Shown here one piece after another: positions 2,617 through 8,085 of a DNA stretch of 9,822 nt. Within the stretch, counting starts at the first letter, position 1. Each line of letters starts with the position of its first letter. The notes beneath the pieces are model-generated. The model was not told the origin of the DNA and searched no databases. It was given only the letters and a program-made list of their open reading frames with translations. Made by a program: the position numbers and the translations under genes. This DNA is from a virus. Lineage: Duplodnaviria > Heunggongvirae > Uroviricota > Caudoviricetes. The stretch is taken from the IMG/VR virus record IMGVR_UViG_3300011952_000030, one strand, 5' to 3'.

Positions 2617-3603
2617 TTAGGCCAGCACACCAATTGCCAGCGCGCGATCGATAAATCGAAAAATCAGCTCCAGTTGGGAGCCATACTTCTCTTCAAATGC
2701 CACGGTATCCGTATGCAACTCGTCGTGATGCTTTCTGCACAAAGGCAACACAAAGAGATCATGTGCTTTGGTTCCCATTCCGCCCTGCCCGTGACCAATC
2801 AGATGATGCGGATCGTCGGCTGGCATCCCGCAGCAAGCACACGGCTGTGTCTTAACCCAGCGTGTGTATTTCTCCTTAACCCAACGGTGACGTTTAGGCA
2901 GCTTCATGAAAGATTCCGGAGACTCTGGATCAACGGTGATGCTTACCACCGTCTTTTCCTGTGATGGGTTTTGTTGCTGGTGGGCGTGAGGCAACGGTGC
3001 AAGATTTTTTGTGCGCTGTTTCAATATGCTGGTGGCGGTCTGCTCTCCCGGTACGATGTCGCTTTCGCGGTACACCGAGCAGATTTTTTCCGCTGGTAAT
3101 CCCAGCGAGCGACGTAATACCGCTTCCGGTAGCGCGTCCGCCAGCTGATTGCGGACCGCCCACCAGGATAATTCAGCCAGAGATAATTCACGCTCCTTCG
3201 TACCGCTTATTGCGTGACCGATGACGTCAATCATCCATGCTGCCAGGTTTTGATGAGCAAGTTGCTCGAGTGATTCGGATGTCTGGTCACGCAGTTGGTT
3301 GTCGCAGTGCCAGCACAACACCATTGCGCCGGTACCATATCGGTGAATAACGGTTTCNNNNNNNNNNNNNNNNNNNNNNNNNNNNNNNNNNNNNNNNNNN
3401 NNNNNNNNNNNNNNNNNNNNNNNNNNNNNNNNNNNNNNNNNNNNNNNNNNNNNNNNNNNNNNNNNNNGCAGATTACGCATGCTTTTCGGTTCCGGCTCCA
3501 CCAGTACCCGGGTATTGTGGAATACCGGCATGGATTCACGGCCCGGCTTAACGACCACCAGCCCGAGTTCCGGTACCAGAACAGGTCGAAGTAATACCCG
3601 CAC
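2617..3603 (-). CDS. ydfU: DUF968 (YdfU-like) phage protein with a C-terminal HNH/zinc-like motif; the interior is unresolved (N-run 3358-3467)
   Basis: The C-terminal part carries PCACCG...[16 protein letters not shown]...[12 protein letters not shown], typical of DUF968 proteins encoded next to Q in Qin-type prophages. The GTG start at 3603 sits 4 nt after GGAGG and 1 nt after the upstream stop, which suggests coupling. The reading frame is preserved across the 110 N. About 37 codons are unknown. Confidence 0.7.
3358..3467. other. Run of 110 unresolved bases (N)
   Basis: Directly visible in the sequence. It falls inside the DUF968 ORF. Confidence 1.
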
Positions 3604-4417: not shown

Positions 4418-4573
4418 TTACTCCTCAGGTTCGTAAGCTGTGAAGACAGCGACCTCCGTCTGGCCGGTTCGGATTCGTACCTCGCAGAGGTCTTTCCTCG
4501 TTACCAGTGCCGTCACTATGACGGTTAAACAGATGACGATCAGGGCGATTAACATCGCCTTTTGCTGCTTCAT
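4418..4573 (-). CDS. hokD: Hok-family type I toxin, 51 aa
   Basis: MKQQKAMLIALIVICLTVIVTALVTRKDLCEVRIRTGQTEVAVFTAYEPEE matches HokD (RelF) as I remember it. AAGGAG lies 9 nt upstream of the ATG at 4573. Confidence 0.9.
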   Translation of the reverse strand: MKQQKAMLIALIVICLTVIVTALVTRKDLCEVRIRTGQTEVAVFTAYEPEE

Positions 4574-4630
4574 AGCCTGCTTCTCCTTGCCTTTCGGCAC
4601 GTAAGAGGCTAACCTACATGTGTCTAGCAT
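4418..4630 (-). CDS. Mok-like reading frame: an in-frame 19-codon N-terminal extension of hok (70 aa)
   Basis: The ATG at 4630 opens MLDTCRLASYVPKGKEKQA and runs in frame into hok. Chromosomal mok frames such as mokC are likewise about 19 codons longer than their hok. The position corresponds to the mok start of plasmid R1 parB in an alignment made from memory. Confidence 0.55.
   Translation of the reverse strand: MLDTCRLASYVPKGKEKQAMKQQKAMLIALIVICLTVIVTALVTRKDLCEVRIRTGQTEVAVFTAYEPEE
4587..4615 (+). promoter_or_regulatory. Sok antisense promoter
   Basis: TTGCCT (4587-4592), a 17-nt spacer, then TAACCT (4610-4615). It is colinear with the R1 sok promoter as I recall it (TTGCGC, 17 nt, TATCCT), including the shared spacer end GTAAGAGGC. 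Confidence 0.55.
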
Positions 4631-4980: not shown

Positions 4981-5018
4981 AGAAAAATGATATCTACATA
5001 TCTATCAAATTACAAATC

Positions 5019-6743
5019 TTAAAGCCTAAAAAACTTATCGTCCTCCCCAAGCTCAAGCACAACACTATTATTGATGAAGTCTTGATCAATATTCTCCAAC
5101 TTGTCTTTAAGAATAGCCAATATATATTGACCATTAATCCCCGAAGCTATCTCGAATAACTTATTTATTTGATTTACATGAATTGCCTCAATTCCATCAT
5201 GAGCTATAAAACGTGGTGTTCTGGCTTCTAAAGACTCCTGGACAGATAAATAGGCAAAATCTAAAGAGGCAACCTGGGCTTTCTTTTTTCCTTCTCCCTG
5301 ATTACCTGATGTGAGCAAAGTTCCTAAAGGTTCAATGGTAAAAACGAAAGAACCGGAGGAATCTTTATAGGAAAGAATATATTCATCCTGATATAATTTT
5401 TTAGTATATAAAGAAAAATAGGAATTGAATAGCGCAAGACGTTTGTTAAAATCGTCAAGTTTAGATTTTAATCTATCTGACACATCATTAAACTTTGCTT
5501 TCAGTATATTAAAGTTGTTCTCCATCTCTTGGATTTGAAGTAGTCCAGCTTCAAGCCCACCTTTTTCTTCAAATAATGAATTTAATTTTTTTTGCATTAT
5601 TTGCAGGTCTGCCAATGTCCCATGCGAAGACAAACTCTTTAAAAGCTCTGATTCTTGAGTCAATAAGTTATTTAGTTCATCTTTATATTTGGAAATTTCT
5701 TGCAGCACTGGCTGCATTTGTTTTCTAATAAACTCAGCTTTTTTTACAAGCATTTTATTATGAAACGAAAGTAGCTCAGTAAACTCTTTGTTTAAGTTAC
5801 CTAACCGATCAGTTGCTTCTAAGTACAACTTCTGTAGATCTAGTGTATTTATATTTTCATGACTTTTTTCCAGATCTAGTATAGCCTTATCGTTTAATTT
5901 TTGCTTAAACTCCAAAGATGATAGTGTGATAGAAACTTCACTAATTTTAATTTTTAACTCATTTAACTCAGCAAGCATATCATTATAAGAGTCTGCCACT
6001 TGAAAATTAGAAATTAACTCTTCTTGTGCTATAATATCTCTATTTATAATTGCAATAGCTTGTTCCAAAGCATTCTTTGAGCGATGGCGAGTAATTACTT
6101 CATAATCGGATTTCGCCAGTTTATAGGCTTTAGTCACTGACTGTTTTTCATCCAGAATCTGTGAGTTACCGAACCCAAACATAAACAGATTTAACGTTTC
6201 ATATTGTGTATTAGAACCCATTTTTATCGTTTTTAATGCGTTCGACATCTTGTCATGCGTATTTCGAATAACACGTCCCATAATCTCTCGTATGGTCGGT
6301 TTTATCGCGGAATCAAGATATAATGTTCTTTTTAAAGCCTCGTTGAAATCTTTAGCCTTCGTATAGGACTCTTCATTTATTGAGGCTATAACCTTCGTTT
6401 TATTAGTCTCAGATGTAATTTTACGCTTAATTTTTATTACTGGTGCAGTTTTATTATTCAAATCTTTTGTGAGAATTAAACAAAACTCAATCTCGTTCTC
6501 TATCAAATAATTTTTTATAACCGAATTTTCTTTCTTGAATTCAGGATCGGTATAAAAATTCAGTTGTTCTGCTCCAAAACAAAAATCTAAAGCTCTTAAT
6601 ACAGTAGTTTTTCCCACACCATTTCCAGTTTGCTCTTTGCTGGAGGTGTTTCGGTCAATAATCAAATTAACGCCAATGTGAAATTCGATATCACGAATCA
6701 CTCCAAGCCTGAAAGAACTGACTATTAGCCGTTTCAAAAACAT
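5019..6743 (-). CDS. Coiled-coil ABC/SMC-type ATPase, 574 aa (LmuB / ABC-3C ATPase-like, DUF2326-like termini)
   Basis: The P-loop GNGVGKTT is at 6603-6626. A central segment of about 230 residues (about 5394-6101) is heptad-rich and poor in Pro and Gly. A signature-like SGNQGEGKKKA is at 5280-5309 and Walker B RFIAHD at 5196-5213. GGAG lies upstream of the ATG at 6743, and the gene overlaps the upstream ORF by 10 nt. Confidence 0.85.
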   Translation of the reverse strand: MFLKRLIVSSFRLGVIRDIEFHIGVNLIIDRNTSSKEQTGNGVGKTTVLRALDFCFGAEQLNFYTDPEFKKENSVIKNYLIENEIEFCLILTKDLNNKTAPVIKIKRKITSETNKTKVIASINEESYTKAKDFNEALKRTLYLDSAIKPTIREIMGRVIRNTHDKMSNALKTIKMGSNTQYETLNLFMFGFGNSQILDEKQSVTKAYKLAKSDYEVITRHRSKNALEQAIAIINRDIIAQEELISNFQVADSYNDMLAELNELKIKISEVSITLSSLEFKQKLNDKAILDLEKSHENINTLDLQKLYLEATDRLGNLNKEFTELLSFHNKMLVKKAEFIRKQMQPVLQEISKYKDELNNLLTQESELLKSLSSHGTLADLQIMQKKLNSLFEEKGGLEAGLLQIQEMENNFNILKAKFNDVSDRLKSKLDDFNKRLALFNSYFSLYTKKLYQDEYILSYKDSSGSFVFTIEPLGTLLTSGNQGEGKKKAQVASLDFAYLSVQESLEARTPRFIAHDGIEAIHVNQINKLFEIASGINGQYILAILKDKLENIDQDFINNSVVLELGEDDKFFRL

Positions 6744-6970
6744 AATATCAAATCTCCATTTTCGTTAGCATCAACCAGGCCTAATAAATATAGCCAATTT
6801 AAAGTGTAAATATATTGCGTGAATGAAGAGTTGTTATTTTTAGATTTGAATTCATTATACAAGTCTATAATATCAACATACGAATAAGCATTTGAACTCA
6901 TGCATTCTAATAACCGAGCTCCCAGGTAATACAAGGTTTGGCTTGGTTTTGTTACATCAGAGATAATCAT
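6734..6970 (-). CDS. 78-aa small protein, winged-helix-like; candidate middle component (LmuC / ABC-3C MC-like)
   Basis: It shares an ATGA start/stop overlap with the upstream gene and a 10-nt overlap with the ATPase gene. The C-terminal TLNWLYLLGLVDANENGDLI looks like a recognition helix plus beta-wing. Its size and its position immediately 5' of the ATPase fit the middle-component slot. Confidence 0.7.
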   Translation of the reverse strand: MIISDVTKPSQTLYYLGARLLECMSSNAYSYVDIIDLYNEFKSKNNNSSFTQYIYTLNWLYLLGLVDANENGDLILCF

Positions 6971-7563
6971 ATTGGTTTTTCCAGAATCTTACACTCTACG
7001 AATGCATGATAAACGATAAAAGAAGCATGGCATTCGATTTCTTCGCTTGTGTAATTCATTGCCATAAGAGAATTTAAGCATTTCTTAATGATGTGCTCTA
7101 TTACACTGTCTATTATCCAATCTGCAAACTCTCTTACCAATTGAATCTTTAAATTATTCCGTTCCTGAGCATCCTTGCAGCTCTTATACGCTTCTCTATG
7201 TTTAAGCAATAAATCTCCTTGACAATCAAGATATCGTGAATTGATGCTTTTCAGTGCCGTTTCCTTAGCAGTAGGCATACTTTCATTTAATGTTTCATAC
7301 GCTTTATCTATCATCGAAGAATATAGATAGAACCCTTCAATACGTTCTCTATGTTTTATAACATCATTGAAGTCTATTTTATTCTCAATATCATATGGCT
7401 CGTAGTCATTGTTTGTACGAGGATCAATAACATTCGAATCAACTAAAATACCAACAAGATCCATAAAAATCGATGGAGACTTTATAATATCAACAGAGTT
7501 AGAATCGACAACCACCTGCACATTACGTGAGTAATTCCCTGACCTTTGAGTAACACCAACCAT
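6967..7563 (-). CDS. 198-aa largely alpha-helical protein with an N-terminal QRSGNYSRNVQVVV motif; candidate third component (LmuA-CTD-like adaptor or sensor) with no recognisable catalytic motif
   Basis: The ATG at 7563 lies 2 nt after the upstream stop, with GAGG 6 nt upstream. I could see no nuclease, HEPN, Sir2, TIR, protease or lipase signature. The helical C-terminal end is ...FIVYHAFVECKILEKPI. Confidence 0.75.
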   Translation of the reverse strand: MVGVTQRSGNYSRNVQVVVDSNSVDIIKSPSIFMDLVGILVDSNVIDPRTNNDYEPYDIENKIDFNDVIKHRERIEGFYLYSSMIDKAYETLNESMPTAKETALKSINSRYLDCQGDLLLKHREAYKSCKDAQERNNLKIQLVREFADWIIDSVIEHIIKKCLNSLMAMNYTSEEIECHASFIVYHAFVECKILEKPI

Positions 7564-7565
7564 GA

Positions 7566-7805
7566 TCAGCCTCGCTTGTTTTCATTATTTCCAAAAACGA
7601 CCGTCTGATTATTTTTTGAATGGCTACCGCTTTTTTGAATTATTGTATGCCCTGAACTTTTTTTATTAACAATAAATGTACCTAAAAATGTTACAAGAAA
7701 GCTACCAGAAGTGAACATCAATGGCACACTATTGAAGTGATATGCAGCAAAGCCAGCGCAAGCAACGAATGTCAAAGAAAATATTCTAATCATAATTCGG
7801 ATCAT
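7566..7805 (-). CDS. Small 2-TM membrane protein (79 aa from the ATG at 7805; 81 aa from the GTG at 7811) with a polar C-terminal tail
   Basis: Two hydrophobic helices (about 7734-7784 and 7668-7727) are separated by only 2 residues. They are followed by the tail NKKSSGHTIIQKSGSHSKNNQTVVFGNNENKRG. AGGA lies 7 nt upstream of the ATG at 7805. It is the first gene of the tightly packed operon. Confidence 0.7.
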   Translation of the reverse strand: MIRIMIRIFSLTFVACAGFAAYHFNSVPLMFTSGSFLVTFLGTFIVNKKSSGHTIIQKSGSHSKNNQTVVFGNNENKRG

Positions 7806-7909
7806 AGCCACATCCTGTAAGTACTGTTGTCATCTTTTAGTGATTCTTGAATCCCATACTATACAAAAGCTTATCCATCTTTTGTACAAGCTTCCGCTTT
7901 GAAAGTGAC

Positions 7910-7938
7910 ATTATAAAGTAACTACAACTTAGAGTGCA
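7910..7938 (-). promoter_or_regulatory. Candidate promoter of the low-GC operon
   Basis: On the minus strand there is a perfect -10 TATAAT (7915-7910), with a weak -35 TGCACT (7938-7933) at 17-nt spacing. It lies about 95 nt upstream of the first ATG. No better candidate is visible before the N-run. Confidence 0.3.
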
Positions 7939-7981
7939 TCCCCCTAAATATCTCCGATGGTGATAGTTGCTGGCTACAACT

Positions 7982-7998
7982 TACTTCCATAACCAACT
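7982..7998 (+). repeat. Right copy of the 17-bp imperfect direct repeat (TACTTCCATAACCAACT)
   Basis: 14 of 17 positions match 4935-4951 in the same orientation. It lies about 30 nt before the N-run. Confidence 0.35.
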
Positions 7999-8028
7999 AA
8001 CTGGCTTGCTCTGCGTTAATTAGTGCAT

Positions 8029-8085
8029 NNNNNNNNNNNNNNNNNNNNNNNNNNNNNNNNNNNNNNNNNNNNNNNNNNNNNNNNN
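8029..8085. other. Run of 57 unresolved bases (N)
   Basis: Directly visible in the sequence. It is flanked by TGCAT on both sides (8024-8028 and 8086-8090). Confidence 1.

Follow-up and report, generated by a model that had tools for sequence, protein, structure and literature searches.

A peptide matched between a small membrane protein and the third component of a prophage ABC-three component system may link effector to sensor

The viral (Caudoviricetes) DNA record IMGVR_UViG_3300011952_000030, the whole 9,822-nucleotide stretch of which is referred to here as the window, carries a minus-strand operon of four genes, namely those for a small protein with two transmembrane (TM) segments, a 198-residue third component with a CTD10 domain, a middle component of the MC6 family, and an ABC ATPase with a DUF2326 domain. 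We found that the C-terminal tail of the 2-TM protein and the N-terminus of the 198-residue protein carry copies of one short peptide, and that this pairing is conserved, constrained at the protein level, matched within individual operons, and general across CTD10 systems. The two peptides may be adaptor motifs, which would link a separate small membrane effector to an ABC-three component (ABC-3C) sensor complex.

In the window, the tail copy and the N-terminal copy of the motif (Table 1) align without gaps and are identical at 9 of 18 positions, with two further positions pairing Lys with Arg. Both segments had been picked out in an earlier reading of the letters alone (the sequence-only reading), whose positions were correct on translation and whose two K/R pairs stood, whereas its count of ten identities did not. 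The core common to both copies is Q-x-x-G-x-x-S-x-N-x-Q, and when the window is translated in all six frames, the pattern Q..G..S.N.Q is present at two places and no others, these being the two motif copies themselves. As had been claimed, the copies are adjacent in the operon, the two genes being parted by a stop codon and 2 nt. The top local alignment of the two whole proteins is the motif segment, with a Smith-Waterman score of 48, which was reached in 2 of 5000 shuffles of both whole proteins and in 0 of 5000 shuffles of the soluble tail and the first 35 residues only. At the DNA level, the copies are identical at 26 of 54 nt, and one shared serine is encoded by AGC in one copy and by TCA in the other; they are therefore alike as peptides and not as DNA.

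Conservation in both protein families falls on this core. Among 15 aligned homologs of the 198-residue protein, which extend down to 33% identity, Gln16 of the N-terminal copy is invariant, and Gln6, Gly9, Ser12, and Asn14 are each at least 90% conserved. A profile search with the 2-TM protein returned 37 clusters, all of ∼80 residues and all from Enterobacterales or metagenomes, and the only invariant tail positions in 31 aligned members of this family are Gln59, Gly62, Ser65, Asn67, and Gln69, which are the same five positions that make up the shared core. Further loci were drawn from genome, metagenome, viral, and Logan contigs; 17 of them had an intact pair and upstream DNA that could be read, and in every one of these the gene for the 2-TM protein adjoins that for the CTD10 protein or overlaps it, the MC6 and DUF2326 genes follow, and the motif is present in both proteins. 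The sequence-only reading had tied its proposal of a shared docking handle to conservation in homologous operons, and both proteins do carry the motif in every such operon examined that had an intact pair and readable upstream DNA, namely these 17 Enterobacterales-type operons and the seven distant ones described below.

Two loci, L014 and L017, were left out of these 17. L014 (373-819) seems truncated, with a membrane gene that lacks its TM part and a CTD10 frame that ends early, and the 101-residue membrane protein P0027 from Providencia stuartii reads past the usual stop into 19 extra residues; both copies look decayed or altered. L017 (1027 bp) and P0015 represent a divergent CTD10 clade (32-34% identity). 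The gene upstream in L017 encodes a 1-TM protein with a related tail, ending KQTAKGSGNTQTITK, and the ill-defined CTD10 start of this locus may reflect a frameshift or a non-canonical start.

The ratio of non-synonymous to synonymous change (pN/pS), computed over 14 motif codons in eight close ortholog pairs that are not fully independent of one another, was 0.086 in the tail and 0.118 at the N-terminus, which indicates purifying selection on both copies. At shared residues, codon identity was 0.46 between the copies of one operon (cognate copies), 0.40 between non-cognate copies, and 0.38-0.41 between orthologs, and the nucleotide identity of the motif copies was 0.52 for cognate versus 0.48 for non-cognate pairs. 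The low pN/pS, together with codon identity at the background level, indicates that the motif is a constrained peptide and not a recent duplication. A recent local DNA duplication without constraint had been named at the outset as an explanation that would undo the claim; synonymous changes far exceed non-synonymous ones in both copies, and both recent duplication and gene conversion were rejected as origins of the similarity, with codon and nucleotide identity at background and a pN/pS of ∼0.1.

The two copies also co-vary. For ten clade representatives, the BLOSUM score was 36.6 for cognate and 28.7 for non-cognate pairs (permutation p = 0.0008), and with the five core positions removed the corresponding scores in the same representatives were 10.7 and 4.1 (p = 0.002). 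In one operon (L015), the first Gln is replaced by Leu and the following Gly by Ala in both copies.

An exhaustive CTD10 profile search returned 500 representative clusters at E ≤ 0.001. Nearly all of the best-scoring 150 of these 500 are proteins of 180-210 residues that consist of CTD10 and a 20-45-residue N-terminal extension, and such extensions are enriched, relative to the rest of the protein, in Gly (3.0-fold), Asn (2.4-fold), and Gln (2.3-fold). The polar N-terminal strands that the sequence-only reading had attributed to third components thus have a counterpart in polar N-terminal extensions across the CTD10 family. Seven distant members (L027-L033), with 22-37% identity to the window protein, were looked up. 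All seven operons contain MC6 and a DUF2326-type ATPase downstream (the 567-residue product in L031 has no Pfam match on record), all seven have a gene for a 53-82-residue protein with one or two TM segments directly upstream (uncalled in one), and in all seven the C-terminal tail of the small protein matches the N-terminus of its own CTD10 protein, with a motif that differs between operons (Table 1). Local alignment scores across a matrix of 15 operons averaged 46.5 for cognate and 25.4 for non-cognate pairs, a result that none of 200,000 permutations reached. Outside the class of motifs with QxGG, the cognate partner ranked first in both directions in five of six operons and, in the sixth (L033), first in one direction and second in the other. 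The motif pair is encoded at adjacent collinear genes, with a gap of at most 2 nt or an overlap, in the window and in 24 further operons.

Domain searches placed the other products of the window operon in known families. The 198-residue protein matched Pfam CTD10 (PF20275) over residues 36-195 (E = 1.6e-10; 42.1 bits, cut-off 28.1) and is named 'ABC-three component system protein' in RefSeq; the 78-residue protein matched Pfam MC6 (PF20293; E = 1.6e-13; 50.8 bits, cut-off 27.2), with which RefSeq agrees; and the 574-residue ATPase matched Pfam DUF2326 (E = 4.2e-14) and the PADLOC model PDC-M68B over residues 17-569 (E = 1.3e-41), with marginal matches to the PADLOC LmuB models (E = 6.2e-4 and 0.032). 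The guess of an ABC-3C system in the sequence-only reading therefore agrees with all three families. This class of systems was reportedly defined by Krishnan et al. in 2020, and reviews put it within the Lamassu superfamily. Judged by its protein families, the operon, which is ∼2.8 kb long in E. coli, is an ABC-3C system in which three of the four defining features are present and the fused effector domain is absent; in the 198-residue protein, where 22-35 residues precede CTD10, no N-terminally fused effector domain was detected with Pfam or AlphaFold2. RefSeq gives system-related names to three of the operon genes and lists the product of the fourth, the 2-TM protein, as a 'hypothetical protein' without a system name (WP_001367360, 79 residues, from an ATG at 7805). 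In Pfam, the 2-TM protein matched no family, Hol_Tox (PF16935) remaining below threshold (E = 0.014; 15.7 bits, cut-off 23.3). A PADLOC scan of the 2-TM, CTD10, and MC6 proteins gave no credible defense-family model, the sole match being that of Csm6 to the CTD10 protein at chance level (E = 0.011). The effector in the window operon appears to be supplied by a separate protein, and the membrane protein is the only candidate for this role in peptide-type operons. We therefore describe the operon as a Lamassu-like, four-gene system, the likely effector of which is a separate membrane protein with the same peptide as the third component.

A few long CTD10 proteins (P0179, P0167, P0140, and P0231-P0235) have a larger N-terminal domain in place of the peptide. 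One of these proteins matched SMEK_N (E = 1.9e-35), others gave sub-threshold HNH-like or Mrr-like matches, and the N-terminal domain of P0231 contains an HNH-like sequence motif with no Pfam match. The operon of P0231 (locus L034, 3501-6234) contains MC6 and DUF2326, and no membrane gene lies upstream. That long CTD10 proteins lack the peptide, and that this operon nevertheless keeps MC6 and DUF2326, places the peptide in the effector position and indicates that it is dispensable for the core complex. The metagenomic protein P0236 (191 residues, on a 1980-bp contig) naturally combines an N-terminal TM helix, an Asn-rich linker, and CTD10 in one chain, in which the linker contains a single copy of a motif-like stretch, NQNITADNGGKAAGRDL; this fusion suggests that split and fused TM/CTD10 forms interconvert in evolution.

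AlphaFold2 modeled the 81-residue protein as a helical hairpin (helices 2-26 and 29-44) with a predicted local distance difference test score (pLDDT) of ∼90, followed by a tail (residues 50-81) with a pLDDT of 36-50. In the model of the 198-residue protein, helices span residues 26-41 and 72-189, residues 1-22 have a pLDDT below 50, and short strands at residues 3-6, 15-19, and 22-25 are predicted with low confidence, with a weak strand propensity. A flank rich in Lys and Arg follows the last hydrophobic helix (TM2 in the window protein) in 11 of 11 small proteins examined, and the tail is therefore predicted to be cytoplasmic in all of them by the positive-inside rule. In a set of 30 motif segments (592 residues), Asn is enriched 3.2-3.7-fold and Gly and Gln each ∼2-fold, Glu is depleted, Leu is reduced to 0.07-0.35-fold, and proline occurs once; the motifs are ∼20 residues long, and the members of a pair are 30-65% identical (mean 47%). 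A Foldseek search of the CTD10 model against the PDB gave no significant match, the best being YydB (9a6c chain B; E = 0.13; TM-score 0.40). The entry 9a6c holds a model of the B. subtilis YydD-YydB complex obtained by an integrative approach, and YydD may be a DUF2326-type ATPase.

The reading that we put forward, to which we give about an even chance, is that the motif pair is homotypic and resembles amyloid signaling motifs, and that it recruits and activates the membrane effector. The helical CTD10 domain would bind the complex of MC6 and the ABC ATPase, and the 2-TM protein would expose the same peptide on its cytoplasmic tail. On sensing infection, the ATPase would cause the CTD10 proteins to be released and/or to oligomerize, as LmuA does in Lamassu. 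The clustered N-terminal peptides would then form a homotypic β-sheet or β-arch (amyloid-like) nucleus, which would recruit and template the matching tails of the membrane protein, and the hairpins would cluster, damage the membrane, and abort the infection. This preferred model combines the precedent of amyloid signaling with the precedent of the Lamassu trigger. More tentatively, and with a little less than even confidence, we suggest that the CTD10-MC6-DUF2326 branch (∼500 clusters at 50% identity) swapped a fused effector domain for a prion-like templating peptide, such that CTD oligomers would nucleate a cross-β assembly that would polymerize and activate a holin-like mini membrane protein with the same peptide.

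On the amyloid side, the precedent is provided by the BASS motifs. BASS1-10 were described in Bell-domain/NLR gene pairs (Dyrka et al. 2020, bioRxiv 10.1101/2020.01.06.895854), where a signature of ∼20-25 residues is found at the C-terminus of the effector and the N-terminus of the receptor, the genes for which are collinear neighbors separated by very small gaps; these motifs are enriched in Asn, Gln, Gly, Val, and Ile, are depleted in Lys, Pro, and Leu, and fall into several families, with pair identities of ∼40-60% (43-56% in the tested pairs) (10.1101/2020.01.06.895854). BASS11 is the 20-residue motif of Bab/Agp, an anti-phage system of an E. coli prophage, and experiments demonstrated amyloid signaling in this system, in which the motif is common to a membrane-targeting effector and its sensor and is needed for abortive infection (Ibarlosa et al. 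2024, bioRxiv 10.1101/2024.11.07.622273). The CTD10 operons are like BASS systems in (i) a short motif at the C-terminus of a putative membrane effector and the N-terminus of a sensor-side protein, whose genes are collinear neighbors that overlap or lie very close together, (ii) pair identity, a composition rich in Asn, Gly, and Gln and poor in Pro and Leu, and several motif classes that are matched within their own pair, and (iii) location in a prophage or defense island and an expected outcome of abortive infection. According to the introduction of the Bab/Agp preprint, the receptor in fungal HET-S/NWD2 and other FASS pairs carries an N-terminal motif that templates the identical motif at the C-terminus of a pore-forming effector, the product of the neighboring gene, and oligomerization of the receptor gives the nucleus (10.1101/2024.11.07.622273). 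The CTD10 operons share with HET-S/NWD2 a motif at the sensor-side N-terminus and the effector C-terminus of neighboring gene products, whereas the fungal pairs have eukaryotic NLR receptors and a HeLo pore-forming domain; likewise, the HET-s motif is a 21-residue β-solenoid rung that occurs twice in the effector, compared with one copy of ∼18-20 residues per protein here.

On the side of the trigger, the precedent is Lamassu (LmuA-LmuB-LmuC, or DdmABC), in which LmuA is held through its C-terminal domain (CTD) on the LmuB coiled coils and LmuC, and in which LmuA tetramerizes through this CTD so that its N-terminal effector becomes active, with prior release proposed by the authors (PMC12663957, PMC11707656). 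The window operon is like Lamassu and ABC-3C systems in its three-part core, in which the coiled-coil ABC ATPase is here of the DUF2326 type, the small middle component is MC6, and the third component, attached by its C-terminal domain, is the CTD10 protein. In those systems, however, the effector domain (a Cap4 nuclease or others) is fused N-terminally to the CTD, whereas a ∼20-residue peptide takes this position here, and the LmuB match of the ATPase is marginal (E=6e-4) and the PDC-M68B match strong. A further comparison is with the effector-associated domains (EADs) and Death-like homotypic adaptors of bacterial conflict systems (Kaur, Aravind and colleagues); EADs are folded helical domains of ∼80-100 residues. 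As with EADs, which recruit the effector by homotypic contact, one module occurs on a sensor-side protein and on a separately encoded putative effector; unlike EADs, the shared module here is a short peptide with low-confidence monomer models.

Several observations weigh against the amyloid-like reading. The first concerns specificity: within the QxGG class, cross-scores in the 15-operon matrix are high and four cognate pairs are not at the top (row ranks 4-8), so specificity inside this class is weak, and co-variation of the two copies would also be expected if both peptides tracked a third binding partner. The second concerns the motif itself, in which Lys is not depleted on the tail side and Val and Ile are weakly enriched, and the conserved core of which (∼11-18 residues) is shorter than that of BASS motifs and more polar than classical BASS and HET-s motifs; a Pfam scan of the 2-TM and 198-residue proteins at E up to 1 gave no match to RHIM, HET-s, Ses_B, or NACHT_sigma. 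The third concerns the partners: unlike in BASS systems, the presumed sensor is an ABC-3C/SMC-like ABC ATPase complex with the motif on its CTD adaptor subunit, and not an NLR (NB-ARC/NACHT) or TGP protein, and the putative effector is a 53-82-residue protein with one or two TM segments and no Bell/HeLo or Pfam domain. Finally, the likeness of CTD10 to the LmuA CTD is putative, the best Foldseek neighbor in the PDB (YydB) being non-significant.

Among the alternatives, stoichiometric docking survives best, and we consider it unlikely but worth serious weight. Here, a defined 1:1 β-strand pair or small sheet would tether the CTD10-MC6-ABC complex to the membrane protein constitutively, and activation would be conformational, with no templated polymerization. 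The same conservation, operon-specific matching, cytoplasmic tail, and gene adjacency apply to such a tether, the low-confidence short strands in the AlphaFold2 model would fit it, and a short polar motif with few hydrophobic positions is as compatible with a strand pair as with a fibril. The partners of a heterodimer, however, need not resemble each other, and self-similarity is the signature of homotypic stacking; moreover, the motifs resemble those of amyloid signaling in their strong bias toward Asn, Gly, and Gln, in being almost free of proline, and in falling into many classes that are interchangeable.

Competitive mimicry, which had already been raised as an alternative in the sequence-only reading, seems to us distinctly improbable. 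Here, the CTD10 domain, MC6, or the ATPase would be a third partner with a single pocket that both peptides bind; the CTD10 N-terminus could, for instance, act as an autoinhibitory pseudo-ligand that is displaced by the effector tail on activation, or the reverse, and the likeness of the peptides would come from co-evolution with the pocket. Each divergent motif class would then need a co-diverging pocket in otherwise conserved domains. Mimicry would also give operon-specific matching and purifying selection on both copies; against it stand the long CTD10 proteins without the peptide, since MC6 and DUF2326 are retained in the one operon of this kind that was examined and the core complex is thus independent of the peptide, and the TM-CTD10 fusion P0236, which keeps an Asn-rich, motif-like linker in a single copy.

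We give very little weight to the idea that the two proteins never touch and that the peptide is a tag recognized from outside the operon, be it by a chaperone, a host protease, the machinery of membrane insertion, or a phage protein that serves as the trigger. Both segments are of low confidence in monomer models, as linear motifs would be, but a host factor would favor one motif, whereas many classes are found, each matching within its own operon, in hosts that seem unrelated. That the similarity is a neutral leftover of a local duplication or gene fission, or mere chance, is hardly credible: both segments are polar and of low complexity and the P0236 fusion shows that fusion or fission occurs in this family, but chance similarity was rejected by the shuffles and by the permutations of the matrix of 15 divergent operons, and the near-invariant or invariant core positions in both families, the low pN/pS, and the background codon identity all argue against an unconstrained remnant.

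Table 1. Features of the operon in the window (positions in the 9,822-nucleotide stretch) and motif pairs of seven distant CTD10 operons
Feature	Coordinates	Strand	Details
Small 2-TM protein, putative effector	7566..7811	minus	81 aa; GTG start at 7811 (open reading frame list)
Tail copy of the motif	7584-7637	minus	QKSGSHSKNNQTVVFGNN; residues 59-76 of the 81-aa 2-TM protein
Core of the tail copy	7605-7637	minus	Q59-G62-S65-N67-Q69
Third component	6967..7563	minus	198 aa; 22-35-residue N-terminal peptide, then helical CTD10
N-terminal copy of the motif	7495-7548	minus	QRSGNYSRNVQVVVDSNS; residues 6-23 of the 198-aa protein
Core of the N-terminal copy	7516-7548	minus	Q6-G9-S12-N14-Q16
ABC-3C middle component MC6	6734..6970	minus	78 aa; between the third component and ATPase genes
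ABC ATPase, presumed sensor	5019..6743	minus	574 aa; DUF2326
Motif pair of L027			TM tail IKISVNGDDNTVSGRDI; CTD10 N-terminus IKIDVNGNTNTIAGRDI
Motif pair of L028			TM tail SQNTIGKNNKQAGGSIN; CTD10 N-terminus NQTATGDNNQQAFGNIN
Motif pair of L029			TM tail QKVKGDGNQVAGGNI; CTD10 N-terminus QQIVDGDGNIVAAGDI
Motif pair of L030			TM tail QTHSGKGDNINV; CTD10 N-terminus QSHTGIGDNIIV
Motif pair of L031			TM tail GTNSGVMAQEVTGGVHI; CTD10 N-terminus GSNSGVIANTVHGGIHL
Motif pair of L032			TM tail VSQSGGHFSKNDQTVNIG; CTD10 N-terminus VSQDGGIGSTNNQTVNIY
Motif pair of L033			TM tail KIKGNNNIVSGRDVTV; CTD10 N-terminus RVDGDGNIVGARDVNI

The window belongs to a lambdoid E. coli prophage, in which the 3.1-kb region that contains the operon has hokD/rem/ydfU/Q on one side and the replication/immunity region on the other; this 3.1-kb region was found in 17 of 5426 complete genomes. 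Together, the four operon genes make up an AT-rich island (window positions ∼5001-8000), with a GC content of 0.31-0.37 versus 0.42-0.52 in the flanks, which suggests a horizontally acquired cassette. This island is flanked by hokD and a DUF977 gene. The hokD type I toxin gene lies directly downstream of the ATPase gene, at 4418-4573 on the minus strand in RefSeq, and the open reading frame list gives a longer 70-residue hokD frame with an upstream extension at 4418-4630 (minus). Two runs of N, at 3358-3467 (110 bases) and 8029-8085 (57 bases), hide some of the ydfU/DUF968 gene and of the intergenic sequence ahead of the operon, and an operon promoter near 8029-8085 is therefore unreadable; a promoter and terminator scan of the window operon gave counts not above those of shuffles. 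The Q antiterminator lies at 2222-2614, in the prophage late region, and a YbgA-family gene and a lipocalin-family gene (390-1349 and 1536-2066) are cargo near this late region, unrelated to the motif finding.

Two E. coli records, NZ_CM144239.1 and NZ_OZ392455.1, contain an IS3-family element inside the 3.1-kb operon region, and the interrupted system is presumably inactive in both. Related four-gene operons on three Logan contigs (L024-L026) adjoin P2-type phage genes: each of the three has a GPA replication gene, and L025 has those for portal and terminase as well; given the lambdoid and P2-type neighbors, the system rides on at least two prophage types.

A literature search found no report that connects ABC-3C or Lamassu systems with amyloid or with matched motifs, the founding ABC-3C paper lying outside this search, so that an earlier mention of membrane partners is possible, and a search on PDC-M68, ABC-three component, and DUF2326 returned nothing relevant. 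The pattern described here is general, unannotated, and directly testable. It leads us to propose the 2-TM protein as the effector of those ABC-3C operons of the CTD10 type in which no N-terminal domain is fused and no effector is otherwise obvious, and it offers an explanation of how this protein would be coupled to the sensor. If this is true, the reach of amyloid or matched-motif signaling would grow beyond NLR and TGP sensors to include SMC-like/ABC ATPase complexes, and beyond filamentous bacteria to include prophages of Enterobacterales, and the family would hold a set of naturally orthogonal motif pairs of ∼20 residues that may serve as engineering tools.

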